64,000 nucleotides of DNA from Dehalococcoidia bacterium (GTDB lineage: Bacteria; Chloroflexota; Dehalococcoidia; GIF9; AB-539-J10), in contig JAXGQG010000008.1 of the NCBI GenBank assembly GCA_040766535.1, forward strand, positions 411-64,410, read 5' to 3'. Positions 34,820 through 60,808 of the stretch are shown here, one piece after another (the stretch's first letter is position 1; the number at the start of each line of letters is the position of its first letter). The position numbers and the translations under genes are program-made. Below the pieces are notes generated by a model, which worked only from the letters and a program-made list of their open reading frames with translations, was not told the origin of the DNA and made no database searches.

Positions 34820-34826
34820 GGGAGCC

Positions 34827-36247: not shown

Positions 36248-36434
36248 ACGCCGAGCCCCTACACTATGAGCGGCATTCGCCTCCTTCCCCGTCAACGAGA
36301 TGGGGTCCGTGGATCTGTTGCGAGTTCGCGGAGTTGCCGCAATCCGTCGGCAGGCGGCACGTACACGACGAAGGCCCGGCACCAGTGCCGGGCCTTCGTG
36401 ATCTGTGCGTATGCTCATGAGGGGAGGTTCCTGA

Positions 36435-40064: not shown

Positions 40065-40118
40065 CTCCTCGGTACTCCTGCGGCGTCCTGGTATGAACGC
40101 CTGATCTGCAGATCGCGT

Positions 40119-41488
<1,370 letters not shown>

Positions 41489-41565
41489 GGCCTTTCCTCG
41501 GGTTCCGTCCTCTCGGTCGCACTATACCACTCTGTGGCGTGTCAATGACGATGCGCTACCGGTTA

Positions 41566-44841: not shown

Positions 44842-44920
44842 ATGCTGGGTCATGTCAGCTGTGCGCTCGGTCGGAGGACAGCAGCTGGACGGCGTACCGG
44901 CGAAAGGAAGGATTGACGAA

Positions 44921-45778: not shown

Positions 45779-45827
45779 CACTGGCCGCAGTACAACCGAG
45801 CCACGGTTCCGAAGAAAGGAGTAAGAG

Positions 45828-46682
45828 ATGGCCAAGAAGAAGACGGTCCTGGACTTCATGAAGATGAAGGAAGCGGGAGAGAAGTTCTCGAAGCTGGCGG
45901 TCTATGATTTCACGTCGGCTCTGCTGGCGGAGAAAGCCGGACTCGAGATGATCCTCGTGGGCGACTCAATGGGGAACGTTGTGTACGGCTACGACGGCAC
46001 CGTGCCCGTCACCATGGAGCAGATGATTTATCACGCTCAGGCGGTGCGGCGTGGCGCGCCCAATGTGTTCATCGTCGGCGACCTCCCGTTCCTGTCCTAT
46101 CAGACGTCTGTCGAGGATGCTGTCCGCAACGCCGGCAGGTTCTACAAGGAAGCGGGCATGGATGCGGTGAAGCTGGAAGGTGGGCGGCAGATGGCGCCCC
46201 AGGTCCGGGCTATTGCTGATGCGGGTATGCTGGTGATGGCCCACATAGGCCTGACTCCGCAGAGCTCGGCGCAACTGGGTGGCTTCAAGGTGCAGGGAAA
46301 CACCGCGGAGGCGGCGATGCGTGTACTGGCAGACGCCCTTGCACTTGAAGAGGCCGGAGCGTTCATGGTCTTGCTCGAAGGAGTGCCGGCAGAATGCGGA
46401 AGACTGGTGACTGAGAAGCTCAGGGTTCCGACCATCGGCGTTGGTGCTGGCCCCCACTGTGACGGGCAGGCCGTGCTGCTGAGCGACCTCATCGGCATGT
46501 ATCCGGTGTTCACGCCAAAATTCGTCAAGCGCTACGCCAATGTCGGCGATGATACCGTCGCCGCGATCTCCAGTTATGTTGCTGAGATCAAGTCTGGTGT
46601 CTTCCCAGGGCCGGAGCACTGCTACAAGATGAAAGAGGGCGAGATGGCCCGGTTGGATGAGATGCTGAAGAAGCAGTCCTGA
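45828..46682 (+). CDS. panB: 3-methyl-2-oxobutanoate hydroxymethyltransferase (paralog 2)
   Basis: MAKKKTVLDFMKMKEAGEKFS..VGDSMGNVVYGYDGT..GDLPFLSY. About 65% identical to the upstream copy. Confidence 0.88.
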   Translation: MAKKKTVLDFMKMKEAGEKFSKLAVYDFTSALLAEKAGLEMILVGDSMGNVVYGYDGTVPVTMEQMIYHAQAVRRGAPNVFIVGDLPFLSYQTSVEDAVRNAGRFYKEAGMDAVKLEGGRQMAPQVRAIADAGMLVMAHIGLTPQSSAQLGGFKVQGNTAEAAMRVLADALALEEAGAFMVLLEGVPAECGRLVTEKLRVPTIGVGAGPHCDGQAVLLSDLIGMYPVFTPKFVKRYANVGDDTVAAISSYVAEIKSGVFPGPEHCYKMKEGEMARLDEMLKKQS

Positions 46683-46784: not shown

Positions 46785-48119
46785 CTACAGCATCTTGCTG
46801 GGAAGCCAGAGGATGATCTGTGGGAAGACGATGCACAGGATCAGCGCGAAGACGATGATAAACACGTACGGAACCATGCCCGAGATTATCTGCCCCGTGG
46901 TCACGTTCAGCTTCGGATCCACTGCCCCCTTGATGTAGAAGAGGGCATAGGCAAACGGCGGTGTCATGAAGGACATCTGCAGGTTGACGCAGATCATCAT
47001 GGCGAACCACAAAGCATCGAACCCCGCAGCGGCAGCCACTGGAGTGACGATGGGGACCATGATGAAGATGATGCCCAACCAGTCGATGAGGAATCCAAGC
47101 AGGAAGCAGATGATCATCACGATCATGAACATTCCCCACTTGCCACCGGGGGCTGCGAGCAGGAATCTCGTCACCACATCGTCACAGTTCGCCCGCATGA
47201 AGATGCCGACGAAAGCGAACGCCATGGCGCCGATCAGCAGCACCATGCCTGAGGTTCGGACCGTGTCCATAGCGGTCTGCTTTAGAATCGGCCACGTTAG
47301 CTTGCGGTAGCCGATTGCGAGGAGAGTGGCCGCGAGGGCGCCGACACCCGCCGCCTCCGTTGGAGCTGCGACACCGAAGAAGATGCTGCCCAGCACTGCA
47401 AGAATCAGTAAGGTGGGCGGCAGCATCGATTTGAGAAGCTTGTACAGCTTGACCGATGCGGCAACATTTCTCTCCGACGCTGGAACCGGCGGCGCCAGAT
47501 TCGGTTGCAGCAGGCAGCGGATGACGATGTAGGCGATGTACATACCCGACAGCAGGAACCCGGGCAGAAACGCGCCGAAGAACAGACGTCCGACCGAGAG
47601 GTTCGCCATAGGGCCGTACACCACCAGCATCACGCTGGGCGGGATGAGGATGCCCAGTGAGCCTCCCCCCGCAACGCATCCCGCTGCAAGGCTTCGGTCG
47701 TAGCCACGATTGATCATGGCAGGCAGGGCAATCAGCGCGAGCATGGTCACCGAAGCGCCGATGATGCCGACGCAGGCGGCCACAACGGTGCCGATCAGGA
47801 CCGTTGTGATCGCGAGGCCACCCCTCAATCCGCCGAACGACAGATACAGGGCATCGTACATGCCCTCAGCCACGCCGGAATGCTCCAGCATGATACCCAT
47901 GAAGATAAACAGCGGCACGGCGAGCAGGACGTAGTTCTCAAGGCCGCTGTAGAAGCGTCCATAGTACAACTCGCCGGCGATCCGAGGGCCAAAGACGAGA
48001 AGCCCGATGACGATGCCCACGCCGCCGATCGATATGGCGAGCGGGTAGCCCAGCAGCACGCCGACAAAGATGCCACCAAGCATCAGGACGGCGACGATTT
48101 CGGGACTGATATCAATCAT
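46785..48119 (-). CDS. TRAP transporter large permease (DctM family), system 1
   Basis: 444 aa polytopic membrane protein with the typical DctM N-terminus MIDISPEIVA.. Confidence 0.88.
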   Translation of the reverse strand: MIDISPEIVAVLMLGGIFVGVLLGYPLAISIGGVGIVIGLLVFGPRIAGELYYGRFYSGLENYVLLAVPLFIFMGIMLEHSGVAEGMYDALYLSFGGLRGGLAITTVLIGTVVAACVGIIGASVTMLALIALPAMINRGYDRSLAAGCVAGGGSLGILIPPSVMLVVYGPMANLSVGRLFFGAFLPGFLLSGMYIAYIVIRCLLQPNLAPPVPASERNVAASVKLYKLLKSMLPPTLLILAVLGSIFFGVAAPTEAAGVGALAATLLAIGYRKLTWPILKQTAMDTVRTSGMVLLIGAMAFAFVGIFMRANCDDVVTRFLLAAPGGKWGMFMIVMIICFLLGFLIDWLGIIFIMVPIVTPVAAAAGFDALWFAMMICVNLQMSFMTPPFAYALFYIKGAVDPKLNVTTGQIISGMVPYVFIIVFALILCIVFPQIILWLPSKML

Positions 48120-48630
48120 AGGACTTCCTCCTCACGGCCATGTGGAAGTCCCTGTACAGGGTCGCTAGACCCTGCAGAAAGAACAACACCATGCCGATGA
48201 AGACGATCGTACGAATCGGAGCCATTGGGGGATACCAGTAGGTGATCATGGACCGTTCGTGAGTCTTCCAGGCGTGTACCATCCAGTTGAATCCGGAGTA
48301 TGTGATGAATCCGACGGAGGGCAGGAAGAACACGAACCACATGATGATGTCGACGATGGCCTTGCCGCGTTCCGTGAACCGGCCATAGATGACGTCAACA
48401 CGCACATGGGCCTTGTGCAGCATCACGTACCCGAATGCAAGCGAATACAGCGCAGTCCCCGTCCACGTCTGGATAACGGGCAACTGACTGGTGGGGCTGT
48501 TGAACACGTACCTCATCATGACTTCAGCGCATACCACCAGAATGAGGAACAGCACCACCCATTTCAACCGCCGTCCGACCCACTCGTTCACGGAGTCTAT
48601 AGTTCTCAGTATCGTTCTCATACTCAACAA
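48112..48630 (-). CDS. TRAP transporter small permease (DctQ family), system 1
   Basis: 172 aa, 4 TM segments, overlaps the dctM start by 8 nt. Confidence 0.85.
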   Translation of the reverse strand: MLSMRTILRTIDSVNEWVGRRLKWVVLFLILVVCAEVMMRYVFNSPTSQLPVIQTWTGTALYSLAFGYVMLHKAHVRVDVIYGRFTERGKAIVDIIMWFVFFLPSVGFITYSGFNWMVHAWKTHERSMITYWYPPMAPIRTIVFIGMVLFFLQGLATLYRDFHMAVRRKSYD

Positions 48631-48858
48631 GGTTCCTTCACAAGTAGTAGTGGAGATGTTGTTAGCCGCTGTACGTCCGTTCGAGGCATTACGGAGGTGA
48701 GGTGCACCCTGCTCAGTCGGTGAAACCCCCCGACCTCACAGTGGGTGGGAACACACTGGCGAGAGGCGCGCAATACCGCTGCATCGAATCGTCTCCAGGC
48801 GACATCACATCAGGAACTTGTATGGCGGTTAACCCATTTACCTTGAAGTGCGTACACC

Positions 48859-48889
48859 GCCTCCTCCCGGGGGAAACCCGGGAGGAGGC
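48859..48889 (-). terminator. intercistronic stem-loop (13-bp GC stem GCCTCCTCCCGGG/CCCGGGAGGAGGC) between the substrate-binding-protein and permease genes; putative attenuator or mRNA-stabilising hairpin
   Basis: Perfect inverted repeat read directly. No clear U-run follows on the minus strand. Confidence 0.5.
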
Positions 48890-48912
48890 CTGAATGCACC
48901 ATCACGCTGCAA

Positions 48913-50058
48913 CTAGTCGAAACTGGTCATCACCGCATACGGGAACCCGTACAGTTCTCCCCAGTTCTTCGCGAAAGCCATGTAGGTGGTGAGATAGTCC
49001 TTCAGCTCGGGGAAGTTCTCGACCTCGGCCTTGTAGAACTTCTTGGTCTCGGCCACAAACAGGTCGTCGATGCTCTTCGGCAACGGGCCATTGATGTTGC
49101 CGTAATCGGTCATCTTCTGCAACGCCTCAGCGTTACGTGTGTGCAGCATCTCGTTGTACTTGATGGACTCAGCCTGTGCACACTCTTCAACGACCGCCTG
49201 CAGGTGCGCGGGCAACTCGCCGAATCGCGTCTTGCTGACCAGGAAGCCGTAGACCTCTGTGGGGGCTCGGCTCGGGGACATGTAGTTGTACTTGGCAGCC
49301 TCATGCATACCCATGGAGTAGTTGAACGCAGGGCAGCTGCATTCGAAGGCATCGATAACGCCGCGCTGCATGGACTCGAAGACCTCGCCAAGGGGCATAA
49401 AGACGGTGCCGACGCCCATGTTGGCGAGAACCTTGCCGCAGTCACCGGAAGCACGCATCTTCATCCCGACGAGATCCTGCGGTCCAGTGATCGGTTTGTT
49501 GGTCGAGATCCAGATCTCCGGCAGACCGTGGAAGCCGCCGCCGGGGATGTCATAGATGTCCCAACCCTTCTGCTGATACCACTTGTTCATCAGGTCAGCG
49601 CCAACGGCCTTGTGGAAGATGAGGTTGGGCAGCGGTGGCATGCCGGCCGGGAGCTGGGAGAAAGCGGTGCCGAAGCGCAGATCGGCAGACATGTAGGAAC
49701 CGCCGCCGGCGCAGAAGTCAAGCACGCCGGAATTGATGTTCTTCCACTCTTCAGTTGCAGGACAGATAGACCCGGCGGGATTCGCCTCCATCAGCAACTG
49801 GCCGTTGCTCGCGGCCTTGATGCTCTCGGATATGCGGATCAATCCCTCAGTCGGCGGGTTGCCTGCCGGCAGTGCGGACTGACCAACCCAGTTGTAGACC
49901 TTGGCCGCGGGTTGCGATGGAGTGGTGGGAGTGGTTGGAGTGGTGGGAGTCGTGGGGGTGGTGGGGGTCGTGGGTGCCGTCTCTGGCGCGCATCCCGTTG
50001 CCGCCACACCGACGAGCATCACAACCACCAGGAGCAGCATTAGTACTCGTCTCGACAT
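48913..50058 (-). CDS. TRAP transporter substrate-binding lipoprotein (DctP family), system 1
   Basis: Signal peptide with lipobox ..VAATGC, a (TPT)n linker, then a DctP-like SBP fold. Confidence 0.85.
   Translation of the reverse strand: MSRRVLMLLLVVVMLVGVAATGCAPETAPTTPTTPTTPTTPTTPTTPSQPAAKVYNWVGQSALPAGNPPTEGLIRISESIKAASNGQLLMEANPAGSICPATEEWKNINSGVLDFCAGGGSYMSADLRFGTAFSQLPAGMPPLPNLIFHKAVGADLMNKWYQQKGWDIYDIPGGGFHGLPEIWISTNKPITGPQDLVGMKMRASGDCGKVLANMGVGTVFMPLGEVFESMQRGVIDAFECSCPAFNYSMGMHEAAKYNYMSPSRAPTEVYGFLVSKTRFGELPAHLQAVVEECAQAESIKYNEMLHTRNAEALQKMTDYGNINGPLPKSIDDLFVAETKKFYKAEVENFPELKDYLTTYMAFAKNWGELYGFPYAVMTSFD
49915..49975. repeat. 9-bp tandem repeats (GGTGGGAGT-like on the plus strand) encoding the (TPT)6 linker; G-rich on the plus strand
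   Basis: Read directly; encodes TPTTPTTPTTPTTPTTPTTP. Confidence 0.8.
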
Positions 50059-50336
50059 TTCCTTTTCACCTCCTGAGATTCTCTATCTATTCGACGCTAT
50101 GCCTGCTGCCAGGCTACCGTCGCGTGATGCCGAGGCACCATCCGGTGCGGGGAGACTCGGGCTTTCCTAGGAACTGTAATCCAGTATAGAAAGGCGTTTT
50201 CACATGTGTCAATAGCTTTGCGCAGCCGTTTCGAAGCTGGCGCGTTACTATCGCATACGATTCGTCTTTGCGAGCCGGTTGGTAGTGGCCGACCGTCAAG
50301 ACGAGCTGGATAGGCGCGGCAGTAGGGAAGAGAAAT

Positions 50337-50361
50337 GGGGCGCCGCTGCTGCCGGCGCCCC
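50337..50361 (-). terminator. rho-independent terminator of TRAP system 2 (GGGGCGCCG-loop-CGGCGCCCC followed by a T-rich run on the minus strand)
   Basis: Stem-loop 30 nt after the dctM2 stop. Minus-strand reading gives GGGGCGCCGGCAGCAGCGGCGCCCCATTTCTCTTCC. Confidence 0.7.
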
Positions 50362-50392
50362 ATATTCGTCAGGGAATCGAGTTCAACGGTGT

Positions 50393-51727
50393 CTAGAGCA
50401 TCTTCCCGGGAAGCCAGAGGATGATCTGCGGGAAGACGACGCAGAGAACAAGTCCAATCATGATGAGGACAATGAACGGAATCACTCCCTTGATCACGTC
50501 GCTCGTGGTCACTCCGTACTCAGGAGGTGAGGCCGCCCGCACGAAGAAGATTGCATAGGCGAAGGGCGGCGAGAGGAACGACATCTGCAGATTGACGCAG
50601 ATCATCATGCCGAACCACAAAGGATCGAAACCAAGTGCGGCCCCGATGGGCGTGATGATGGGCACCATGATGAACACAATGCCGATCCAGTCGATGAACA
50701 TGCCCAGGATGAAGCAGATGAACATGATCACGAAGAAAACGCCCCATTTGCCTCCAGGGGCCGAGAGGAGGAAGTTGGAGACAACCTCTCCGCAATGGGC
50801 CCTGATGAAGATGCCGACGAACGCGAAGGAAAGAGACGCCAGCAGCAGGATCATACCGCTGTGGCGGATGGTCGCGAGCGCGGTCTCTCTCAGTGCTGTC
50901 CAGGAGAACTTGCGGTAGGCGACTGCCAGCAGTGTTGCTGCAAGCGCGCCGACGGCGGCCGCCTCGGTCGGAGCCGCAATGCCGAAGAAGATGCTGCCCA
51001 GCACCGCCAGGATGATCAGCAACGGCGGAACGAGGGACTTGACCAGCAGCAAGAGCTTCTGGCTCACCGGGAGGTTGCGTTCTTCAATGGGCACTGCAGG
51101 GCCGCTGCTCGGAAACAGCAGAGTGAAGATGATGATGTAGAGCATGTACAGACCGGAGAGGAGAAAGCCGGGCATGAAGGCGCCGAAGAAGAGCGAACCT
51201 ACGCCGAGGTTGGCCATTGGCCCGTAAATGACGAGCATGATGCTCGGCGGGATGAGAATGCCGAGCGTGCCGCCGGCACAAACGCACCCCGTCGCCAATG
51301 GTTTGCTGTAACCACGTTTGAGCATTGCTGGTATGCCGATGACGGCCAGCATCATAACCGAAGCGGCGATGACGCCAACGCACGCGGCCATGATGGTTCC
51401 AATGAGGATTGTGGTCAGTGCCAGCCCGCCCCGAAGGCCTCCGAAGACCTGGTACATGGCCTCATACAGTTGCTCAGCCACTCCGGTCCGTTCAAGCATG
51501 ATGCCCATGAAGATGAAGAACGGTACCGCGATCAGCGTGTAGTTCGTCACCTGGTTGAACATCCGCTGGTAGTACATATCCCCCACAACCTTGGGGTTGA
51601 ATACCAGAAGACCGACGAGCAGGCCGACGGCGCCAACGGATATTGCCAGCGGGTAGCCGAGCACCACGCCGACGAGGATGCCACCGAAGAGAAGCAGGGT
51701 GATGACCTCAGGGCTCAAATCAATCAT
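50393..51727 (-). CDS. TRAP transporter large permease (DctM family), system 2
   Basis: 444 aa, paralog of 46785..48119 with the same length and conserved blocks. Confidence 0.88.
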   Translation of the reverse strand: MIDLSPEVITLLLFGGILVGVVLGYPLAISVGAVGLLVGLLVFNPKVVGDMYYQRMFNQVTNYTLIAVPFFIFMGIMLERTGVAEQLYEAMYQVFGGLRGGLALTTILIGTIMAACVGVIAASVMMLAVIGIPAMLKRGYSKPLATGCVCAGGTLGILIPPSIMLVIYGPMANLGVGSLFFGAFMPGFLLSGLYMLYIIIFTLLFPSSGPAVPIEERNLPVSQKLLLLVKSLVPPLLIILAVLGSIFFGIAAPTEAAAVGALAATLLAVAYRKFSWTALRETALATIRHSGMILLLASLSFAFVGIFIRAHCGEVVSNFLLSAPGGKWGVFFVIMFICFILGMFIDWIGIVFIMVPIITPIGAALGFDPLWFGMMICVNLQMSFLSPPFAYAIFFVRAASPPEYGVTTSDVIKGVIPFIVLIMIGLVLCVVFPQIILWLPGKML

Positions 51728-52229
51728 ACGGTACCCCCTTCACGGCCATGTGAAGGTCTCGCCAGAACTGTGCGAGCCCTTGCAGCATGAAGAGCGCCAC
51801 TCCAATGAAGATGGCGGTGCGCAGAGGCGCGATGGGCGGATACCAGTACGTGAAGACCGACTTCTCTCCGATCTCCCACGCGCGTACCATCCAGTTCCAT
51901 GCCTGGTACCCTATGAAGCCAATCACCGGGACAAAGAGGCAGACGAAGAGGGCGCTGTCGAAAATCGCCTTCACCCTGTCCGAGAGACGGTTGTAGACGA
52001 TGTCGACTCGCACATGTCCTTTGTGCTTATGTACGTGGCCCCATGAAAGGCAGTACATGGCGCCGGCAATCATGATGGGAATCTCGTAGCCCCACATGGT
52101 GGGCCGGTTAAAGACGTATCGCTGTGTGACCTCAAGACACGTTACCAGACAGGCCGCGATAACGAACCACTTGACCAGCTCACCCATCCACTCGTTAACC
52201 GTGTCGATGTACCTGATAAGCGTTTTCAC
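51720..52229 (-). CDS. TRAP transporter small permease (DctQ family), system 2
   Basis: 169 aa, paralog of 48112..48630. Confidence 0.85.
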   Translation of the reverse strand: MKTLIRYIDTVNEWMGELVKWFVIAACLVTCLEVTQRYVFNRPTMWGYEIPIMIAGAMYCLSWGHVHKHKGHVRVDIVYNRLSDRVKAIFDSALFVCLFVPVIGFIGYQAWNWMVRAWEIGEKSVFTYWYPPIAPLRTAIFIGVALFMLQGLAQFWRDLHMAVKGVPYD

Positions 52230-52245
52230 ATTTCAACACACTTCC

Positions 52246-52282
52246 GGCCCGGGTACGGAGGACTTGCCTCCGTACCCGGGCC
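52246..52282 (-). terminator. intercistronic stem-loop (GGCCCGGGTACGGAGG-acttg-CCTCCGTACCCGGGCC) between dctP2 and dctQ2
   Basis: 16-bp perfect inverted repeat read directly, at a position analogous to the hairpin in system 1. Confidence 0.5.
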
Positions 52283-52317
52283 GAGGAACTATTTGCCGGT
52301 GTGAGATCAGTTGCCTA

Positions 52318-53442
52318 CTAGAGGTGAGACCAGACGGTCGTCAGCTGGTCGTACCAGCCCCAGTAGGAGTCCAACACCTTCGCATAGAATGGATCGGATG
52401 CCTTCTCGGCGTAGAACGCCTTGGCGACCTCACCATACGCTGCAGCAATGGAGTCGGGCACTGGGAGGACCTGAGTGCCGTAGTCCTGGAAGTTTGCGAT
52501 GGCGATGAGGTCCTTGTGCATCATTTCGCAGTAGGAGCGGATGGTCTCGGCCTCATTGACCTCGGAGATGATCTGTTTGAGGTCAGCGGGCAGCTCATTC
52601 CAGACATCCTTGTTCATGATGAACGGATTGTACTCGTACGGCTGCCGTGCGCCGGAGAGGTACAGGTAGTCGGCGGCCTCGTACAGGCCGAGATCCCAGT
52701 TCAGTGTGGGACTGGAAACCTCGAAGGCATCGATGACGCCACGCTGCATGGACTCAAACACCTCACCAGCGGGCATCATGACCATGCTGGCGCCCATCCG
52801 GGAAAGGATCTCGCCGCCGTCACCAGCGCCACGGATCTTCATTCCCTTGATGTCGTTGGGGGAACTCAGCGGCCTGCTGCTCTGCAGGAATGCCTCGGGC
52901 GGGCCCATCCAGCCGCCGTCCTTGACCAACTGAACGTTGTAGCCCTCGATCATCTCATAGCCGAGTTCGTATCCGCCGCCCTCCAGGAACCAGGAGATGG
53001 CGCCCATGGGAGTCATGCCGCCGGAGATCATGGTGAAGAGGCCGGCCGCAGGGAACTTGTCAAGCCAGTACATCCAGCAGGTCACGGCGAAATCGAGCGT
53101 ACCCGTATCGCACGCATCGAATTCCTTCGTGGCTGGCGCGATGCCGCCACCGATCTCGACCGTCATCTTCAGTCGCCCGCCGGAGGCGATGCCGCAGTTC
53201 TCAGCAACTCTCACCAGCGAGGTATGCTGAGCCGTCAGACCGCCGGCATGCGACTGACCGACCAGATCGTAGACCTTGGCCGCAGGCTGCGATGGAGTGG
53301 TGGGGGTGGTAGGAGTGGTAGGTGTAGTTGGGGTTGTCGGGGTTGTTGGGGTTGTTGGGGTCGTGTCGGGTGCACAACCGGCAATCAGCAGACTGATTAC
53401 CGTCAGAGCTCCGACGAGCGACCAGACGAACCGTTTGCTCAC
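52318..53442 (-). CDS. TRAP transporter substrate-binding lipoprotein (DctP family), system 2
   Basis: Lipobox ..LLIAGC, a (TPT)8 linker ending in SQPAAKVY (identical to system 1), then an SBP fold. Confidence 0.85.
   Translation of the reverse strand: MSKRFVWSLVGALTVISLLIAGCAPDTTPTTPTTPTTPTTPTTPTTPTTPSQPAAKVYDLVGQSHAGGLTAQHTSLVRVAENCGIASGGRLKMTVEIGGGIAPATKEFDACDTGTLDFAVTCWMYWLDKFPAAGLFTMISGGMTPMGAISWFLEGGGYELGYEMIEGYNVQLVKDGGWMGPPEAFLQSSRPLSSPNDIKGMKIRGAGDGGEILSRMGASMVMMPAGEVFESMQRGVIDAFEVSSPTLNWDLGLYEAADYLYLSGARQPYEYNPFIMNKDVWNELPADLKQIISEVNEAETIRSYCEMMHKDLIAIANFQDYGTQVLPVPDSIAAAYGEVAKAFYAEKASDPFYAKVLDSYWGWYDQLTTVWSHL
53283..53370. repeat. 9-bp tandem repeats encoding the (TPT)8 linker; plus strand has runs of GGGG (potential G-quadruplex)
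   Basis: GGTGGGGGTGGTAGGAGTGGTAGGTGTAGTTGGGGTTGTCGGGGTTGTTGGGGTTGTTGGGGTCG read directly. Confidence 0.8.
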
Positions 53443-53707
53443 TTCTCACCTCCTGTCTTACTTATCGGATCGCCGGGGATGCGCCTGTATGGCGCAAATG
53501 GGATGGGGTAACCTGCCTCTTCTCTTGAAGTGAGTATACGAACGGCGCAAGAGCATTGTCAAGGGATTCTCGTTCGCGGAATGAATATCGCGGCATTCGT
53601 CCTAACGGCTTCCTCTCGGTGTCGCTCTTCGTCGTCGCACTCATTTCGCCCATCAGGCGTCGTGCACTCATCACAGGGAGCCACAGGCAACTGCCGGCTA
53701 CTCAGAG

Positions 53708-54970
53708 TCAAAGGTCGATCAAAGGTAGCACCTGGGGGCCCTCCGGAATTACCGCCACTTCGGCGTGCCGGCCGAGCCGCGTGATGGCCTCGGCGACTGC
53801 CGCGTCTAGGTCGTGCACAGGCTCGAGCCACACGCTCCGCACCGTGTCGTCGTCGAGTTCCGAGTGCACCATCACCTGGTTTCGCATCTGGATTCGGGCC
53901 AGGATCTGGTTCTGCCACTGGACGCCGAGTGGCTCTTCGCGCCGGATCTTCTCAAGAACGTCGACAGGGTTCTTGCACGAACGGTGGACATCCACAAATG
54001 ATCGTGGGCCGACGCCTGTCGCGCAACTCGAAGCGATGATGAGGATTCCTCCGTCGCGCGTAATCATCGACGCGACATCCATGCCCTTCACCGTCTGATA
54101 CAGGTCAAGGTCGAGCGGCGCACCGCTGTTGGTAGTGATGGTTATGTCCACTCGGTGCGGCACTCTCACGCCCACGATGTCACGAGCGGCCGCGCACCCT
54201 GCCTCGTGTGCCGCAACAAGGTCCCCCGCGAACACCGCCGTTATCTCTTTGCGCCGGTTCAGCAATACGTTGACCACGAAGCCAAGTCGTGCCATGCGCG
54301 CCTGTTCGATCATGTCCTCGTGGATCGGATTGCCGGCGAGAACGCCGGCCCGGCTGTTGGGATCCGCTATCATGCGGTAACCGTGGTTGATGTAGGCGGA
54401 ATTCCGGCCGAATACCCCGGGTGCGATGCTCTTCCTGCCACCGGAGAAACCTGCGAAAAAATGCGGCTCGATGAAACCCGTAGACACCAGGAAGTCGGCA
54501 TTCACCACCACGTCGAAGATGTCTACCGGCGTGCCGCGCGAGGTCGTTCCGATGTTCACCACGCTATTGGGGTCGTGATTGAGCACCCGGTACGTGTCAA
54601 CGATGTGCTGGCCCAGCAGCCGGCTCAGCTCCTGGTGACTCAACGGCGCGTGCAGCCCGAGCGCAACCACTATGGTGATGTTGTCGCGGGGCACGACCCG
54701 CTCCAATTCGCCCAGTATCGGGGGGAGGAGTCGGTCATCGGGGCATGCCCTGGTATTGTCGGTGACGATCACGACCACGCGGTCGGTGGCTTTGACCGCC
54801 TGCCACAGCGGCCGGTGGCCTATCGGGTTCCTGAGAGCGTCCGTGATCGCGGAGGCCTCATCCCGCAGCCCCGCGACCTCTCTGGGCTCGAGCACGTAGG
54901 CAAGGTTTCGTTCGGGGATACGCACCTTCAGATGCGTATCCCCGTATGGCAGCGAAAATGTGGCGTCCAT
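53708..54970 (-). CDS. LarA-family (DUF2088) nickel-pincer-nucleotide-dependent 2-hydroxy-acid racemase/epimerase homolog
   Basis: 420 aa. ..TGFIEPHFFAGFSGGRKSI.. matches the LarA block that holds the NPN-tethering Lys. The N-domain has the DUF2088 pattern. The substrate is unknown. Confidence 0.75.
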   Translation of the reverse strand: MDATFSLPYGDTHLKVRIPERNLAYVLEPREVAGLRDEASAITDALRNPIGHRPLWQAVKATDRVVVIVTDNTRACPDDRLLPPILGELERVVPRDNITIVVALGLHAPLSHQELSRLLGQHIVDTYRVLNHDPNSVVNIGTTSRGTPVDIFDVVVNADFLVSTGFIEPHFFAGFSGGRKSIAPGVFGRNSAYINHGYRMIADPNSRAGVLAGNPIHEDMIEQARMARLGFVVNVLLNRRKEITAVFAGDLVAAHEAGCAAARDIVGVRVPHRVDITITTNSGAPLDLDLYQTVKGMDVASMITRDGGILIIASSCATGVGPRSFVDVHRSCKNPVDVLEKIRREEPLGVQWQNQILARIQMRNQVMVHSELDDDTVRSVWLEPVHDLDAAVAEAITRLGRHAEVAVIPEGPQVLPLIDL

Positions 54971-54976
54971 AGCCGC

Positions 54977-56377
54977 CTACCGTATCGCGTTCCCGGGATT
55001 GAGGATGTTGTTCGGATCAAACAACTTCTTGATACCCCGCATCAGCTCTTCCTGCTTGGGGTCCATCAGGTATTCGAGGTACTTCAGCCGTATCTTGCCG
55101 ACGCCATGCTCGCCGGTGACGACGCCTCCAAGGGCGATCGCGGCCTTGTAGATCTCCTTCTTCACGTCTTCCGCCGTTCCACGCTGCACGAGTTCCTTCA
55201 ACATGTAAGGGTGGAAGTTGCCGTCGCCGGCATGCGCGATGGTCGCGATCTTCGTGTCGTACTTTCTGGCGATTTCGTCCAGCCGGTCGAGCATCTTGCC
55301 CAGGTTCGCCGGTGGGACGGTGATATCCGAGTCACCGGCGATGAGTGGTTTCATCGCCGAATAGATCTCGCTGCGCATCTTCAGGATATCCGCCTGCTCC
55401 TGCGCACGCTCGGCGATGAGCACGTCCATAGCACCATTGCTCTGGCATACTTCCGACATCGTCTCCGCCTGGAAATACACGTCATCCTCGTTAGCACCGG
55501 TGAGGATGAGTATGAGGTGGGCCTTGCCTTTCTCCGCGGGCCATTTCATGCCGAGATGCTCCGCCGACATGGTGATGACTTCGTGGTCCACGTACTCGAT
55601 GGCCATCGGTATGACACCGCTCTGGAGCAGCTTCGGCACCGTGTTTATGGCCTTGTGTCTGTCTTCAAACGAGACGACCAAAGTAGCTGTACCGGCGAAC
55701 TTCGGATAGAGCCGCATGGTGGCCTTGGTGATGATACCGAGGATGCCCTCGGAATCGATGATCAGCTGCATGAGATCGAGTCCGGTGTTGTTCTTGAGCA
55801 ACTTCCCACCCATCGTGGTGATCTCGCCGGTGGGCAGTACTACTTCGAGTCCCTTCACATACTGCCGCACAACACCGTATTTGACGGCCCGGGAACCGCC
55901 AGCGTTCGCGGCAATCATGCCGCCTACCTGGGCACCTTCATCTCCCGGGTGCGGAGGGAACAGCAGGTCGGCCTTGTCCACAGCCTCGAGCAGTTGCGCG
56001 AGCGTCACTCCTGCCTCGGCAACCACCATGAGGTTCTCGGTGTCGACTTCCTCGACCTTGTCGAATCGCTCCATCGAAATGACGATCCCGTCCAGGGTAG
56101 GCACGGCGCCGCACACTAGTCCCGTTCCAGCGCCTCTGGGGTACACAGGGGTCTTGTCACGGTTGGCCAGCTTGAGTATCTCCGAGATCTCCTGCGCCGT
56201 AGCTGGTTTGACCACCACCACATGGTCCGCGGGTTCGAGTCGCTGATCGGGAGTGGTCTCATCGTAGAGATATGTCTGCATCTGGTCGCGTTCAGTGATG
56301 ACCCAATCTGCCCCCACAATCTTCTTCAGACCGTCAACATCGATCATCTGTCTTCTCACCTCCGTAATGCAATGCAC
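54977..56377 (-). CDS. FAD-binding oxidoreductase, GlcD/D-lactate dehydrogenase family (paralog 1)
   Basis: FAD-binding PCMH domain (..VYPRGAGTGLVCGAVP..) and a C-terminal GlcD-type domain (..GEHGVGKIRLKYL..). Confidence 0.85.
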   Translation of the reverse strand: MHCITEVRRQMIDVDGLKKIVGADWVITERDQMQTYLYDETTPDQRLEPADHVVVVKPATAQEISEILKLANRDKTPVYPRGAGTGLVCGAVPTLDGIVISMERFDKVEEVDTENLMVVAEAGVTLAQLLEAVDKADLLFPPHPGDEGAQVGGMIAANAGGSRAVKYGVVRQYVKGLEVVLPTGEITTMGGKLLKNNTGLDLMQLIIDSEGILGIITKATMRLYPKFAGTATLVVSFEDRHKAINTVPKLLQSGVIPMAIEYVDHEVITMSAEHLGMKWPAEKGKAHLILILTGANEDDVYFQAETMSEVCQSNGAMDVLIAERAQEQADILKMRSEIYSAMKPLIAGDSDITVPPANLGKMLDRLDEIARKYDTKIATIAHAGDGNFHPYMLKELVQRGTAEDVKKEIYKAAIALGGVVTGEHGVGKIRLKYLEYLMDPKQEELMRGIKKLFDPNNILNPGNAIR

Positions 56378-56407
56378 TGGCTATGTTGTTCAACATGGCA
56401 ACGGCAG

Positions 56408-57826
56408 TTACCTGATGGCGGAGTCCGGGCTGAGGATGCCGTTGGGGTCGAAGAGCCGCTTGATTCCACGCATCAGGTCCATGGACTTCGGGTCTATGCA
56501 CATGTCCAGTTCTCCCAAACGTGTCTTGCCGATGCCGTGCTCGCCACTTATGACGCCGCCAAGTTCAATGGCCCTGGCGTAGATCTTTCGTTTTACCTCT
56601 GTGGACAGTCCCCGTTCCTTCAGTTCAAGCATGAGATGCGGATGGAAATTGCCGTCGCCCGCGTGTGCCACCATGGGAATCTTCGTCTGGTACTGGGTCG
56701 CGAGCTTGTCAACCTCGTCCATCATCTCCCCGACGGCAGCGGGTGGCACGGTCACATCCAGTATCTCGGCGAGTTGTGCCTTATACGTCATGCTCTCTTC
56801 ACTGCGGATGTGGAGGATGTGGGCCTGTTCTTCGCGGCTCTCGGCTATGAGGGTGTCCACTGCGCCATTGGCCTCGCAGATGTCGGACACGTTCTGACAC
56901 TGCTCGTACACGTCGTCGTCGTTGGTTCCGGTGATGATGACGATGAGATGGCACTTGCCCTTGGTTGCCGGCCAGTTCGTGCCGAGGTAGCGCGCGGTGT
57001 CCTCCATGAGATCCCTATCCACATACTCGATCGCCATGGGAATGACGCCAGCCTGCAGTATCCTGGGCACTGCGCGGATGGCGCTGCGGCGGTCTTCGAA
57101 CGATACCACCAGCGTCGCCGGTCCGGCGAACTTGGGATACAACCGGAGCACGACCTGGGTGACAATCCCGAGGATGCCCTCGGAGTCGATCATCAGGTGC
57201 ATGAGATCCAGCCCGGTGTTGTTCTTCAGCAGCTTTCCACCCATGGCAACGATCTCACCGGTGGGCAGTACGACACGCAGCCCCTTGACGTAGTTGCGGA
57301 CCACTCCATACTTCACAGCGCGTGTTCCGCCGGCGTTACAGGCTACCAGGCCTCCAAGCTGCGCGCCTTCATCTCCGGGATGAGGTGGAAAGAGCAGGTC
57401 CTTGGCCTCAACTGCCTCGAGCAACTGCGCCAGCGTGACACCGGCCTCGGCAACGACCATCAGATTTTCTTTGTCGATCTCGATCACCTTGTCGAGCCGC
57501 TCGAGCGACACGATAACACCATCTCTTGTGGGGATTGAGCCCGCGCACACTCCAGTGCCTCCTCCACGAGGATAGACCGGGAACTTCAGTTCATTGGCAA
57601 GCCTCATGACCTGCGCAACTTCGTCCTCGTTGGCTGGCTTAACCACCACAACGTTGTCCGCGGGCTTCATTACCAGCCCGGTGTACGTCTCGTCGATGAG
57701 GTAGCTCGCCATCTGGTTGCGGTCGGTGACGACCCAGTCCTCACCCACGATAGCCTTGAGTCTGTCTACGTCAAACATCTGCAGGGTTCTCCTCTCCTGT
57801 ATCCATAAGTCAGATAGTGGGGCCAA
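56408..57826 (-). CDS. FAD-binding oxidoreductase, GlcD family (paralog 2)
   Basis: Same architecture (..VYPRGGGTGVCAGSIP.., ..GEHGIGKTRL..). Confidence 0.85.
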   Translation of the reverse strand: MAPLSDLWIQERRTLQMFDVDRLKAIVGEDWVVTDRNQMASYLIDETYTGLVMKPADNVVVVKPANEDEVAQVMRLANELKFPVYPRGGGTGVCAGSIPTRDGVIVSLERLDKVIEIDKENLMVVAEAGVTLAQLLEAVEAKDLLFPPHPGDEGAQLGGLVACNAGGTRAVKYGVVRNYVKGLRVVLPTGEIVAMGGKLLKNNTGLDLMHLMIDSEGILGIVTQVVLRLYPKFAGPATLVVSFEDRRSAIRAVPRILQAGVIPMAIEYVDRDLMEDTARYLGTNWPATKGKCHLIVIITGTNDDDVYEQCQNVSDICEANGAVDTLIAESREEQAHILHIRSEESMTYKAQLAEILDVTVPPAAVGEMMDEVDKLATQYQTKIPMVAHAGDGNFHPHLMLELKERGLSTEVKRKIYARAIELGGVISGEHGIGKTRLGELDMCIDPKSMDLMRGIKRLFDPNGILSPDSAIR

Positions 57827-58967
57827 TAGTATAGATGTTGGAGTTCACGCCGGACGAATCGTATCCGAGTATCTCCGCCTTCACCTGTTCGCCGGAGAAG
57901 ACGCTGAGCACTTTGTCGAGCACGCGCGTGCCGGCTTCATCAAGCGACTCAGTACCTGCGACGATGCCACTCACGTCGAGGTCGATATACTCGCCGAGCA
58001 TGCGGCAAGTCTTCTCGTTGCCGCATATCTTGATCACTGGCGCCAGGGAGAAGCCCTGGGGTGCCCCGATGCCGGTGGAGAACAACATGACCTGACATCC
58101 GGCCGAAGCGAGCCCAGTCAGGAACTCCATCTCGCGGCCTGGCGAATCCATGAAATACAGCCCGGGTACTGGCGGACGCTCACCGTAGCGGACAACGCCG
58201 TTGATGGGCAAGGTTCCAGATTTCACGATGGCGCCAAGCGACTTCTCCTCAATTGTGGTGAGCCCTCCGCGTATGTTGCCCTCTGTTGGTTGTCCTCCGC
58301 GCATGTCCACGCCCATGGCGTTGACTCTCGCCTCCATCGCGTCTACACAACCCATGAGCGCTGATGCCACAGCCTCGTTGTGGGCACGGCGCACCAGGAT
58401 ATGCTCGGCTCCGATGACCTCGGTGGTCTCGCCGAAGAGTACCGTCGCCCCCAGCTTGATGAGGCGGTCCACCGCGTTGCCGGTGGCCGTGTTCGACGCC
58501 AGTCCAGACGTGGTATCGGAGGCGCCGCACTTCACTCCTATGATCAAGTCAGATAGAGGTACGTTGCCGCGCCGCCCGGATTGTTGCTGCGCCAGTTTGC
58601 GGGCAGCGGCGATGCCCTTCTCCGTCGCCACCGTTATGCCGCCCATGGCCTGAACTCTCACCAGTTCGACGGGCTTGGCGGGCCGAACCGCGTTCACGAT
58701 GTCTTCGGCAGTCACCGACTCGCAGCCAAGACTCACCAGTACCACTGCGGCGACATTGGGATTGAGACACACACCCGTCAGAACGTCGGTAACGGTTCTC
58801 ACATCGGTGGGTAGTTGACAGCATCCCTGATGGTGCAGCATGGGGCGAGCGGACGGGACGGCCGCAGCGATTCTGCGGGCAACTTCGTTGACGCACCCGA
58901 CCGAGGGTACGACAGCAATGTAGTCTCGGGCTCCAGCGGGCCCGACAGGTCTCAAGAAGCCTTCCAT
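57810..58967 (-). CDS. UxaA-family hydro-lyase (altronate/galactarate dehydratase C-terminal catalytic domain; no SAF N-domain)
   Basis: 385 aa. ..DYIAVVPSVGCVN..HQGCCQLPTD..LVSLGCE.. aligns with the UxaA/GarD large domain. Confidence 0.7.
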   Translation of the reverse strand: MEGFLRPVGPAGARDYIAVVPSVGCVNEVARRIAAAVPSARPMLHHQGCCQLPTDVRTVTDVLTGVCLNPNVAAVVLVSLGCESVTAEDIVNAVRPAKPVELVRVQAMGGITVATEKGIAAARKLAQQQSGRRGNVPLSDLIIGVKCGASDTTSGLASNTATGNAVDRLIKLGATVLFGETTEVIGAEHILVRRAHNEAVASALMGCVDAMEARVNAMGVDMRGGQPTEGNIRGGLTTIEEKSLGAIVKSGTLPINGVVRYGERPPVPGLYFMDSPGREMEFLTGLASAGCQVMLFSTGIGAPQGFSLAPVIKICGNEKTCRMLGEYIDLDVSGIVAGTESLDEAGTRVLDKVLSVFSGEQVKAEILGYDSSGVNSNIYTIGPTI

Positions 58968-59010
58968 TGTCTCTCCTGTCTCTCCTTTCTGCGTGACCGT
59001 ACGGTAGCCC

Positions 59011-60387
59011 TCAGGGGATCGCGGTTCCCGGGTTCAGGATACCGTTCGGATCGAACAGCTTCTTCAGCCCACGCATCAGTTCGAGGGATTTGGGATCGAT
59101 GCACATCGAGACCTCGTCAAGCCTGCATTTGCCGACACCGTGTTCCGCCGTGATGGTGCCGCCCAGTCCGATTGCGGCCGTGTACAGGTCGTGCTTTACC
59201 GCCTTGAGTTGACCGCGATCGTGCAGTTCGAGAGGCAGATGAGGATGAAGGTTCCCGTCTCCGGCGTGACCGTAGGTGATGATCCTCGTGTTGTACTTCT
59301 TGCCGATCTCGTCGACCATATCGAGGAACACGGCTATCTGGGCAGGGGGGATGGCCATGTCGAGCACATCGGCCACCTGCGGCTTGAGGACGGGATACAG
59401 TTCACTACGGATCTTCAAGATGTCCGCCTGTTCTTCACGGGTTTCCGCCATGATCGTATCCACTGCCCCAAGGCTCTCGCAGATCTTGAGCACGTCCCCT
59501 GCCTGCTGATACACGTCATCATCGTTGCTTCCAGTGATGATGGCGATCAGGTGGGCGTTGCCCTTTGCCGCCGGCCAGTGCTTGCCCAGGTGTCTGGCCG
59601 AGATCTCTATGACGTCACGGTCGACGTACTCCAGCGCAAGCGGTATTACGCCAGTCTGGAGAATTCGTGGGACGGCTCTGATCGCGGCGTGGCGGTCATC
59701 GAAGGAGATGATGAGTGTCGCGGTGCCTGCAAACTTGGGGTAGAGCCGGAAGATGACCTTCGTGACGATGCCGAGGATGCCCTCGGAGTCGATCATCAGG
59801 TGCATCAGATCCAGTCCCGTGTTGTTCTTCAGCAGCTTCCCGCCCATCGTGATTATCTCACCGGTCGGCAGGACGACCTCGAGTCCCTTTACATACTGAC
59901 GCACGACGCCGTACTTCACGGCGCGCGTTCCACCCGCGTTCATCACGACAAGACCGCCAAGTTGGGCTCCCTCATCCCCGGGGTGTGGCGGGAACGAGAG
60001 CCCCACAGCTTCCACTGCTTTGAGGAGCTTCTCCAGTGTGGCTCCGGCCTCGGCAACCGCCATGAGGTTGTCCGTATCAACCTCGATGATGCGGTCCAGC
60101 CGTTCAAGTGAGAGTACGATGCCCCCTGCCGTCGGCACCACGGCGCCAACGCAGCCCGTGCCTCCACCTCGTGCGACAACGGGAATCAAACGCTCATTCG
60201 CGAGGTGCAGAATGCGCGAGATCTCATCAGCGCTGGCCGGTTTCACGATGACCACGTCTGACGATGGGACCGGACAGACAGGCAGGGCAGTAACATCAAC
60301 GAGGTACGAAGCCGCAAGACTGAGATCCGCCACCACCCAGTCCTCTCCCACGATGTTGCGCAGTTCCGCGAGCACTTCACTCTTCAA
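59011..60387 (-). CDS. FAD-binding oxidoreductase, GlcD family (paralog 3)
   Basis: ..ARGGGTGCVGAVVP.., ..AEHGVGKCRL... TTG start 4 nt after GGAGGAGAG. Confidence 0.85.
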   Translation of the reverse strand: MKSEVLAELRNIVGEDWVVADLSLAASYLVDVTALPVCPVPSSDVVIVKPASADEISRILHLANERLIPVVARGGGTGCVGAVVPTAGGIVLSLERLDRIIEVDTDNLMAVAEAGATLEKLLKAVEAVGLSFPPHPGDEGAQLGGLVVMNAGGTRAVKYGVVRQYVKGLEVVLPTGEIITMGGKLLKNNTGLDLMHLMIDSEGILGIVTKVIFRLYPKFAGTATLIISFDDRHAAIRAVPRILQTGVIPLALEYVDRDVIEISARHLGKHWPAAKGNAHLIAIITGSNDDDVYQQAGDVLKICESLGAVDTIMAETREEQADILKIRSELYPVLKPQVADVLDMAIPPAQIAVFLDMVDEIGKKYNTRIITYGHAGDGNLHPHLPLELHDRGQLKAVKHDLYTAAIGLGGTITAEHGVGKCRLDEVSMCIDPKSLELMRGLKKLFDPNGILNPGTAIP

Positions 60388-60400
60388 CTCTCCTCCTTCG

Positions 60401-60436
60401 TGACGTGGCGATCATCTCCGTGTACGCCACGTCAGG
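60401..60436. promoter_or_regulatory. perfect inverted repeat TGACGTGGCG-N14-CGCCACGTCA immediately upstream of the first gene of the FAD-oxidase/LarA cluster; candidate operator
   Basis: Read directly, 14-50 nt upstream of the TTG start at 60387. Confidence 0.5.
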
Positions 60437-60751
60437 CAGCAACCAGCCAGCAGCACCAGCGTCTGTGTCAGCACAATGGACAGGGAGCGGCCATCGCTGT
60501 GAACACTGGTGACTTACTCCTCCTGATTTCGACAGTGATGGATGTGGTGGATTGAGCAGGGGCGCCCCGGACAGCAACACGTGTCCGTGCCGAATGTACG
60601 AAGGTGGGCTGCCGCTGCATCGAACGGTGCCGGTATCGCTTGGCCGTAGAATCGCAGGCATGTCGCAGGTCCGCCTGATTTGTGCCATTGTACACGCCCC
60701 GGGCCCCGCGGAGTACCCCGGACGGAAACGAGACATCCGGCAGCTACTATC

Positions 60752-60781
60752 TTGACGCTCAGAATTGGTCGATGGTAATCT
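60752..60781 (+). promoter_or_regulatory. putative sigma-A promoter of guaA (-35 TTGACG, 17-bp spacer, -10 GTAATC/TAATCT)
   Basis: Hexamers read by eye about 28 nt upstream of ATG 60809. Confidence 0.35.
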
Positions 60782-60808
60782 TCTTGGACTGGCCCTGCGC
60801 CACCGACG

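Follow-up and report, generated by a model that had tools for sequence, protein, structure and literature searches.

The window analysed here is a 64-kb stretch (64,000 nucleotides) of the Dehalococcoidia bacterium assembly GCA_040766535.1 (contig JAXGQG010000008.1, positions 411 to 64,410). It contains a block of eleven co-directional minus-strand genes, treated here as reaching from 46785 to 60387, which encode a homologue of the nickel-pincer-nucleotide (NPN) racemase LarA, three flavin adenine dinucleotide (FAD)-dependent dehydrogenases (GlcD1 to GlcD3), a UxaA/GarD-family protein and two tripartite ATP-independent periplasmic (TRAP) uptake systems (Table 1). All eleven genes were verified with an open reading frame (ORF) listing and Pfam scans. 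An earlier annotation made from the nucleotide sequence alone (the sequence-only reading) had already listed two TRAP importers, a LarA homologue, three GlcD-like dehydrogenases and a UxaA protein without a SAF domain on this strand, and the Pfam results agreed with that inventory. Its block end at 60436 was moved to 60387, since the GlcD3 gene starts with a TTG at this position, preceded by GAAGGAGGAG, and encodes 458 amino acids, the same as called in the relatives. The GlcD2 ORF reaches a TTG at 57826. Its likelier start is the ATG at 57778, which is preceded by the ribosome-binding site AGGAGAGGAG, so that the GlcD2 gene does not overlap the UxaA gene. Up to 42 kb, the Pfam scans covered ORFs of 180 amino acids or more; between 34 and 42 kb, selected ORFs of 90 amino acids or more were included, as were the long ORFs that flank the block. 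In agreement with the sequence-only reading, no GlcE, GlcF, larB, larC, larE or regulator gene was found among the scanned window ORFs, nor was an Etf; shorter ORFs lie outside these scans, and a small regulator is still possible.

Table 1. Positions of the features discussed in the text. Positions refer to the window unless a related locus is named; protein functions and regulatory elements are predicted.
Feature	Position	Strand	Domains and remarks
GlcD3, LctD-like FAD-dependent D-2-hydroxyacid dehydrogenase	59011..60387	-	FAD_binding_4 + FAD-oxidase_C; gene 1 of the enzyme operon
UxaA/GarD-family dehydratase, large-subunit form without SAF	57810..58967	-	GD_AH_second + GD_AH_C
GlcD2, LctD-like FAD-dependent D-2-hydroxyacid dehydrogenase	56408..57778	-	FAD_binding_4 + FAD-oxidase_C
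GlcD1, LctD-like FAD-dependent D-lactate-type dehydrogenase	54977..56377	-	FAD_binding_4 + FAD-oxidase_C
LarA, NPN-dependent 2-hydroxyacid racemase, lactate-racemase type	53708..54970	-	Lar_N + LarA_C; final gene of the enzyme operon
DctP-A, TRAP solute-binding lipoprotein with (TTP)n linker	52318..53442	-	Pfam DctP
DctQ-A, TRAP small membrane subunit	51720..52229	-	Pfam DctQ
DctM-A, TRAP large membrane subunit	50393..51727	-	Pfam DctM; TIGR00786 317 bits, above cut-off
DctP-B, second TRAP solute-binding lipoprotein	48913..50058	-	Pfam DctP
DctQ-B, TRAP small membrane subunit	48112..48630	-	Pfam DctQ
DctM-B, TRAP large membrane subunit	46785..48119	-	Pfam DctM; TIGR00786 302 bits, above cut-off
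Promoter-like TTGACA-18-TATACT upstream of DctP-A	53533..53562	-	11/12 match; present in 8/8 related loci examined
Promoter-like TTGACA-18-TATACT upstream of DctP-B	50183..50212	-	11/12 match; present in 6/6 related loci examined
Terminator-like GC-rich hairpin with T-tract, 3' of DctM-A	50335..50363	-	11-pair stem, 9 GC pairs
-10-like box GTGTA(C/G/A)AAT, candidate promoter of the enzyme operon	60687..60695	-	guaA-GlcD3 spacer; 8/9 aligned species
In-cluster IlvD paralogue of related loci	L003 15352-17013; L013 11336-12997; L007 15100-16767; L009 11329-11979		
RtcB fragment	34659-35159	+	First 58 of 426 profile positions
ATP-grasp_5 fragment	37700-38053	-	
DRTGG	36435-37166	-	
Acetyl-CoA hydrolase/transferase	40442-41488	-	N-domain only

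The five enzyme genes are not set apart by promoters and terminators between every gene, but follow one another at distances of only 6-43 nucleotides (nt; 43, 31, 30 and 6 nt in order from GlcD3 to LarA). The sequence-only reading had treated the 13.6 kb as a single block. Both TRAP systems, however, are preceded by a conserved promoter-like element of their own, which was present in all 14 upstream regions of DctP orthologues examined in related loci, and a terminator-like hairpin follows the first system. The locus is therefore better described as three linked predicted transcription units, namely the enzyme operon, TRAP-A and TRAP-B. The candidate promoter of the enzyme operon would imply a leader of about 300 nt. 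The sequence of this leader was not conserved, and its folding energy was the same as that of shuffled sequences (z about 0). The 421-nt spacer between guaA and GlcD3 was considered as a site for a regulatory RNA or a small ORF; this idea was rejected, as the spacer had no Rfam match and no conserved ORF and its folding resembled that of the shuffles. The spacer (60388-60808) contains divergent conserved promoter-like boxes, those on the guaA side being TTGACG and TGCTAATC. The annotated guaA start codon (ATG, 60809) lies just about 20 nt past the guaA -10 box, and the true start of guaA is therefore probably further downstream.

Alignment of the window LarA to Lactiplantibacillus plantarum LarA (5HUQ) showed that Arg75, His108, His174, Lys184 and His200 are kept. 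The NPN-binding residues Arg75, Lys184 and His200 were identical in the window LarA and in 22 of 22 related sequences, and both catalytic histidines, His108 and His174, were kept in the window LarA and every orthologue. The loss of such Lys/His residues, which the sequence-only reading had named as grounds for abandoning the racemase assignment, was thus not observed. Substrate specificity in this family is determined by the equivalents of F175, F176, W358 and T359: lactate racemases usually have F, F, W and E/Q, gluconate epimerases have E, V, A and H, and 2-hydroxyglutarate racemases have Y, F, H/Q and T; in malate racemases the final two residues are H/Q and K (PMC11770544). The window LarA and its cluster-linked orthologues carried F, F, W and Q at positions 175, 176, 358 and 359 (one orthologue had L at 175), and a sister clade, 60% identical to the window LarA, carried F, F, W and E. 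Judged by the F-F-W-Q signature, the window LarA is predicted to belong to the lactate-racemase group. Enzymes of this group took C3-C4 acids only, and LarAH43, a characterised enzyme with Q, was equally efficient on glycerate and lactate (PMC11770544). Since Gln359 is shared with LarAH43, the window LarA probably also accepts glycerate or further hydroxy acids of the C3-C4 size. The top NCBIfam model was Ni_dep_LarA (NF033504, 446.7 bits). Malate-racemase models ranked lower, the second-best model being the LarAH6 malate racemase (408 bits). The window LarA was 36% identical to LarA1, and an exact search of the contig index returned no entry for it.

The dehydrogenases GlcD1, GlcD2 and GlcD3 are mutually 62-65% identical. 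Wherever a related locus reaches the position of one of these genes, it holds an orthologue with 76-93% identity, and the triplication is therefore older than the lineage. The best match of GlcD1 in the PDB was LctD of the Acetobacterium woodii lactate dehydrogenase/Etf complex (7QH2_C, 313 bits), and the three paralogues, which have their closest relative of solved structure in LctD, were 35-37% identical to it (GlcD2 35%, GlcD3 37%). They differ from the glycolate oxidase GlcDEF in that none reaches the cut-off of the GlcD equivalog TIGR00387 (321-347 bits, with GlcD3 at 321, versus 568 bits), and in that no GlcE or GlcF partner was found. The metal and substrate residues described for mouse LDHD (R347, H398, H405, E442 and H443; PMC10589216) were kept in all three paralogues and in 34 orthologues. 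Guided by the same study (PMC10589216), we compared the substrate pockets at the mouse LDHD positions V101, W351, S365 and I407. The pocket of GlcD1 was L/Y/D/Y, invariant in 14 sequences (LctD: L/L/E/Y), that of GlcD2 was V/S/I/H, and that of GlcD3 was C/Y/V/H, the same in all 10 orthologues. The pockets differ between the paralogues and are essentially invariant inside each orthologue group, a pattern that would be expected for three active enzymes with different substrates. None of the three pockets contained a basic residue of the sort that a dicarboxylate would favour, and that of GlcD1 carried an Asp. GlcD1, whose pocket most resembles that of LctD, is probably the D-lactate dehydrogenase, and GlcD2 and GlcD3, with different uncharged pockets, presumably serve other short D-2-hydroxy acids.

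The two TRAP systems are complete DctPQM sets, in which the membrane subunits are more similar to each other (DctM 65%, DctQ 51% identity) than the binding proteins. At 41% identity, DctP-A and DctP-B probably bind different ligands. Their best PDB matches were 4PET, 5CM6, 2ZZV and TakP (2HZK) for DctP-A, and 4PET, 2ZZV, 5CM6 and 7UG8 ('ketoacid-binding protein') for DctP-B, which also matched the lactate-binding protein TTHA0766. Monocarboxylate binders were matched at E 1e-24 to 1e-30, C4-dicarboxylate DctP structures only at E about 1e-4 to 1e-5, and SiaP was a weak match to both binding proteins. TakP binds 2-oxo acids, branched ones included, together with a cation (PMC1839085), and its Tyr100 and carboxylate-binding Arg177 are aligned in DctP-A. 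This weak but consistent picture points to small monocarboxylate ligands for both binding proteins. Unlike TakP and TTHA0766, which are their best solved relatives, the window DctPs are predicted lipoproteins (lipobox LIAGC in DctP-A, AATGC in DctP-B) with a Thr-Pro linker. The N-termini of both (53290-53442 and 49910-50058) have a near-identical linker of Thr-Thr-Pro repeats followed by SQPAAKVY. The near identity of this segment next to mature domains of about 41% identity suggests that the anchor and linker have been homogenised or are constrained.

The UxaA-like protein has both catalytic domains of the UxaA/GarD dehydratases, GD_AH_second (E 1.5e-28) and GD_AH_C (E 4.7e-84), and matched Escherichia coli GarD (6U7L) with 164 bits across residues 2-361. 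Its C25, C49, C82 and C147 align with the GarD cysteines and were kept in 14 of 15 homologues, the odd one coming from a low-quality contig. These four cysteines, a proposed iron site, are kept across the UxaA/GarD dehydratases but not in the sulfolactate sulfo-lyase SuyAB (PMC6336799); their conservation therefore supports a dehydratase and opposes a SuyB-type lyase. The ratio of non-synonymous (dN) to synonymous divergence (dS) was about 0.06, which indicates purifying selection qualitatively, with dS being saturated. Besides GarD, the family includes dehydratases of D-arabinonate and D-idonate and heteromeric members, such as the predicted L-fuconate dehydratase (PMC6336799). The window protein differs from these in having neither a fused nor an adjacent SAF domain, and its substrate is probably shorter than C5. 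Pfam detected no SAF domain in the protein itself, and tblastn with two SAF queries returned chance matches only from the 64-kb window and from the related loci L001, L003 and L007. A SAF small subunit adjoins all seven more distant UxaA-large homologues whose neighbourhoods were examined (58-62% identical), which are from other phyla including archaea. The loss or relocation of the SAF partner thus appears to be specific to this Dehalococcoidia lineage. A literature search on UxaA with a SAF domain found nothing relevant.

A LarA-family gene adjoins the UxaA-large homologue in six of the seven unrelated loci. The pairs of UxaA-large and SAF genes in these phyla were located at L004 9685-12467, L026 7214-10028 and L028 8001-10682, and also in L006, L027 and L029. 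Some of their LarA-family partners are of the lactate-racemase type with F-F-W-Q, including one that exceeds the LarA cut-off with 491 bits. Others fall into the NCBIfam 'NPN isomerase group 22', with T/Y/Y/L at the specificity positions and the catalytic residues kept. Genes for an FGGY kinase and DeoR, or for KduI, KduD, KdgK, Eda and aldehyde:ferredoxin oxidoreductase (AFOR), often accompany these loci. The repeated pairing of a LarA-family with a UxaA-family gene gives the impression of a functional module that has yet to be characterised.

Dehalococcoidia/Dehalococcoidales metagenome-assembled genomes were the source of the homologues of both LarA and the UxaA-like protein, and the related contigs, from at least 11 species-level genomes, share the gene order GlcD3-UxaA-GlcD2-GlcD1-LarA-TRAP-TRAP. 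A LarA gene (at least 70% identical) adjoins GlcD1 in 11 GTDB species-level genomes. The full five-enzyme set was present in seven and both TRAP systems in five of these; in the others the locus ends at a contig end. Compared with their orthologues, all eleven genes had a dN far below dS, a qualitative result only, since dS was saturated (>1). The divergent upstream neighbours of the cluster, guaA and purD, also flank one side of it in the related loci L001, L003 and L007. Downstream lie two panB genes, a panG-like gene and ilvD, as in the sequence-only reading, with the pan genes on the opposite strand and convergent. A panB gene follows TRAP-B in all five related loci that reach that far (L008, L013, L014, L016 and L024). 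The GC content is 0.58-0.62 over the entire window. The sequence-only reading had described the block as an island, an idea that we dropped because of this flat GC content and the conserved place of the block between guaA/purD and panB in many related genomes. The cluster is, as far as these comparisons indicate, an old, vertically inherited and selected trait of this Dehalococcoidia lineage.

Some relatives have an extra gene between LarA and TRAP-A, encoding an IlvD paralogue (Table 1) that is 55-58% identical to the window IlvD and exceeds the IlvD equivalog cut-off. In the window and in L024, IlvD lies instead about 3 kb downstream, past the convergent panB-panB-panG genes, so that an IlvD-type dehydratase is always near the cluster. 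The tandem panB paralogues of the window (44852-46682) are 62% identical and adjoin the panG-like gene, which has a DUF2520/Rossmann domain. The panB duplication is kept in those related loci that extend far enough.

We consider it fairly probable that the cluster takes up DL-lactate together with related C3-C4 2-hydroxy acids and turns these into 2-oxo acids, mainly pyruvate. We infer the functional steps from the gene content, residue conservation, synteny and promoter motifs, which are direct observations. The two paralogous TRAP systems would import small 2-hydroxy or 2-oxo monocarboxylic acids, and LarA with its nickel-pincer cofactor would interconvert L- and D-lactate, supplying the D forms. 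The three FAD- and metal-dependent LctD-like enzymes would oxidise D-2-hydroxy acids, D forms only, to 2-oxo acids, with GlcD1 as the D-lactate dehydrogenase and GlcD2 and GlcD3 acting on other short D-2-hydroxy acids. This scheme of import, stereoinversion by LarA and D-specific FAD-dependent oxidation to a 2-oxo acid had been proposed in the sequence-only reading and fits the residue-level evidence. The sugar-acid substrate that it had assigned to the UxaA-like enzyme is hard to reconcile with so small a LarA pocket and with a cluster that has no kinase or aldolase. The UxaA-like enzyme would be an iron-dependent dehydratase that converts a 2,3-dihydroxy acid to a 2-oxo-3-deoxy acid. Given the small LarA pocket and the lack of a kinase or aldolase, the conversions of glycerate to pyruvate or of 2,3-dihydroxybutyrate to 2-oxobutyrate are the simplest candidates, although naming either acid as the substrate is a guess. 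To our knowledge, neither conversion has been described for the UxaA/GarD family. It is possible, if doubtful, that the SAF-less protein dehydrates a short 2,3-dihydroxy acid and that LarA works alongside it as a racemase or epimerase of this acid.

Combining LarA with a dehydrogenase of the GlcD type is an established principle of DL-lactate use (PMC8914356; PMC7583248 Table S1). In the lct clusters of A. woodii and gut Firmicutes, lactate induces lctD together with the genes for Etf (lctBC), the permease (lctE) and the racemase (lctF), and strains that have neither an L-lactate dehydrogenase nor the racemase fail to use L-lactate (PMC8914356). LarA group 1 has an association of 35% with COG0277 and of 33% with Etf (PMC7583248 Table S1). 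As in the lct cluster, a LarA-type racemase in the window is paired with a predicted D-specific, NAD-independent dehydrogenase of the GlcD/LctD type, a pairing that would make both lactate enantiomers usable. The LctD-type dehydrogenase gene adjoins LarA in both, GlcD1 ending 6 nt before LarA in the window. In contrast to the lct cluster, the window has three diverged, conserved dehydrogenases rather than one, and neither the window nor the orthologous loci have EtfAB (LctBC) domains. Neither a LutR/GntR-type regulator (lctA) nor a permease of the LctP family was found, with two TRAP systems in place of the latter; a UxaA-type dehydratase is added, and the host is a member of the Dehalococcoidia.

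The sequence-only reading had called the locus unannotatable, a description that the F-F-W-Q LarA, the LctD-like dehydrogenases and the lactate/2-oxoacid-type DctPs contradict, as they follow the known logic of LarA with D-lactate dehydrogenase. It had further not recognised the combination as a described pathway. The core is in fact known, and neighbourhoods of LarA homologues with UxaA and of LarA homologues with TRAP and IlvD have been tabulated; what remains of this claim is an elaborated variant with one unexplained extra enzyme. The triplicated specialised dehydrogenases, the SAF-less UxaA-family dehydratase and the dual TRAP uptake are features of moderate interest. A literature search on SAR202 or Dehalococcoidia with lactate racemase, TRAP or D-lactate dehydrogenase found nothing relevant.

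Several observations speak against a pathway for lactate and related C3-C4 acids. The window LarA shares the five cofactor and catalytic residues and the F, F, W, Q signature with the lactate-racemase group (5HUQ; LarAH43/LarAH51), but it scores 13 bits under the NF033504 equivalog cut-off of 460 and has no larB/C/E nearby. The link between Gln359 and glycerate is based on one characterised enzyme. The scanned window ORFs include no Etf, iron-sulfur partner or other electron acceptor, and no larB/C/E. Both DctPs are distant from the lactate/2-oxoacid binders (E 1e-24 to 1e-30), and the alignment of DctP-A is weak around the TakP cation ligand Gln156, which is not clearly conserved. We know of no glycerate dehydratase described in the UxaA/GarD family. 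The UxaA-large homologues found outside the lineage all have a SAF neighbour, and several are in sugar-acid loci, so that the substrate may be larger or a SAF partner may be encoded in another part of the genome.

A larger substrate would be used if the cluster served the catabolism of C5-C6 sugar acids. TRAP would then import an aldonate or a uronate-derived acid, LarA would be a GntE-like C2 epimerase, and the UxaA-like enzyme (in some species the IlvD/Edd paralogue) would form a 2-keto-3-deoxy acid for a kinase and an aldolase encoded elsewhere. UxaA-large homologues with 58-59% identity do occur in loci of the KduI/KduD/KdgK/Eda type with TRAP and LarA, and an IlvD/Edd-family gene lies inside the cluster of some relatives. 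Heteromeric L-fuconate and other sugar-acid dehydratases share the UxaA/GarD superfamily (PMC6336799), and LarA-homologue group 22 is associated with TRAP, COG0129 and sugar kinases (PMC7583248 Table S1). We nevertheless hold this pathway to be unlikely, because LarA reads F-F-W-Q rather than the E-V-A-H of GntE, and the Phe/Phe/Trp pocket of lactate racemases took C3-C4 acids only (PMC11770544). Moreover, neither a kinase nor an aldolase nor a regulator of the sugar type is present in the orthologous loci, the IlvD paralogue inside the cluster scores above the IlvD equivalog cut-off rather than that of a sugar-acid dehydratase model, and the binding proteins are nearest to lactate/2-oxoacid binders.

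The same reactions could serve biosynthetic salvage, in which 2-hydroxy and 2,3-dihydroxy acids would yield pyruvate, 2-oxobutyrate and 2-oxoisovalerate for the synthesis of branched-chain amino acids and pantothenate. The conserved proximity of the cluster to ilvD, a panG-like gene and two panB genes would thereby be explained, panB being found after TRAP-B in 5/5 loci and IlvD inside the cluster or about 3 kb downstream. Branched substrates are also within reach of related proteins, as TakP-type proteins bind branched 2-oxo acids (PMC1839085) and LDHD-type enzymes oxidise D-2-hydroxyisovalerate and D-2-hydroxyisocaproate (PMC10589216). However, the pan genes run towards the cluster on the other strand, the adjacency may be inherited synteny alone, and the lactate-racemase pocket of LarA disfavours branched substrates. 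Anabolic and catabolic use of the same reactions are indistinguishable here, and we regard a salvage role as quite unlikely.

A C4-dicarboxylate pathway appears very unlikely. In such a pathway, LarA would racemise malate or epimerise tartrate, the UxaA-like enzyme would convert tartrate to oxaloacetate, and the GlcDs would oxidise D-malate or tartrate. LarA-homologue group 5 (Mar1) almost always has COG2721 'altronate dehydratase' as a neighbour (PMC7583248 Table S1), so that an NPN-dependent C2 isomerase stands beside a UxaA/GarD-family dehydratase there as in the window. Mar-type enzymes epimerise tartrate promiscuously, and the second rank of the LarAH6 model for the window LarA points in the same direction. 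Unlike the group 5 loci, the window has a LarA of the lactate- rather than the malate-racemase type, TRAP rather than TctABC, and no SAF partner. Where malate racemases have H/Q and K at positions 358 and 359, every orthologue has W and Q; the three dehydrogenase pockets lack a basic residue, with an Asp in GlcD1, and the DctPs match dicarboxylate binders far more weakly than monocarboxylate binders. Sulfolactate degradation, with a SuyB-type (R)-sulfolactate sulfo-lyase and LarA as a sulfolactate racemase, was dropped as highly improbable: although SuyAB is a heteromeric member of the UxaA/GarD superfamily with the same domain layout in its large subunit (PMC6336799), the four-Cys dehydratase motif that SuyAB does not conserve is retained here, tblastn found no SuyA/SAF gene, and the scanned window ORFs encode no sulfite exporter or sulfite dehydrogenase.

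In the Dehalococcoidaceae, a sister locus (L019 5091-17747) encodes an HpcH aldolase, AFOR, ferredoxin, a LarA with F-F-W-E, AP_endonuc_2, GlcD, GlcE, GlcF and glycerate kinase. Its gene content suggests a coherent set for the C2/C3 products of 2-keto-3-deoxy-acid cleavage and for C2/C3 hydroxy-acid metabolism, which makes it a precedent for the proposed use of short hydroxy acids by the window cluster. The other scanned ORFs of the window are housekeeping genes (riboflavin, diaminopimelate (DAP), tpi/pgk, rpsB-tsf-frr, dxr, ispG, aminoacyl-tRNA synthetases and others). The window is intact except for about 7 kb at 34600-41500, in which only short ORFs with partial domains were found (Table 1). 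This region has the look of a group of genes that are decaying or frameshifted, or of errors in the local assembly. Near the left end of the window, a gene for a tyrosine recombinase of the phage-integrase family (2086-3021) adjoins a tRNA gene (1744-1815), a possible integration hotspot unrelated to the cluster.

The predicted use of lactate and related C3-C4 hydroxy acids does not overturn current understanding, but the locus offers enzymology three closely related D-2-hydroxyacid dehydrogenases that form a natural series, each with its own conserved pocket, a LarA of the lactate-racemase type with the glycerate-associated Gln, and a UxaA-family dehydratase that apparently works without its usual SAF partner. 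If the proposed functions are true, the dehydratase, LarA and the three dehydrogenases would form a 'stereochemical funnel' that leads D- and L-configured C3-C4 hydroxy acids to pyruvate without kinases or aldolases, and the LarA-family C2 isomerase and the UxaA-type dehydratase would be a recurrent functional pair across phyla. Dehalococcoidia are abundant in sediments and groundwater and almost wholly uncultured, so that catabolic loci conserved among them provide some of the few hints at their diet. The locus predicts that members of this lineage scavenge both lactate enantiomers and related small hydroxy acids, the fermentation products of their neighbours, and this prediction could steer their enrichment and cultivation.

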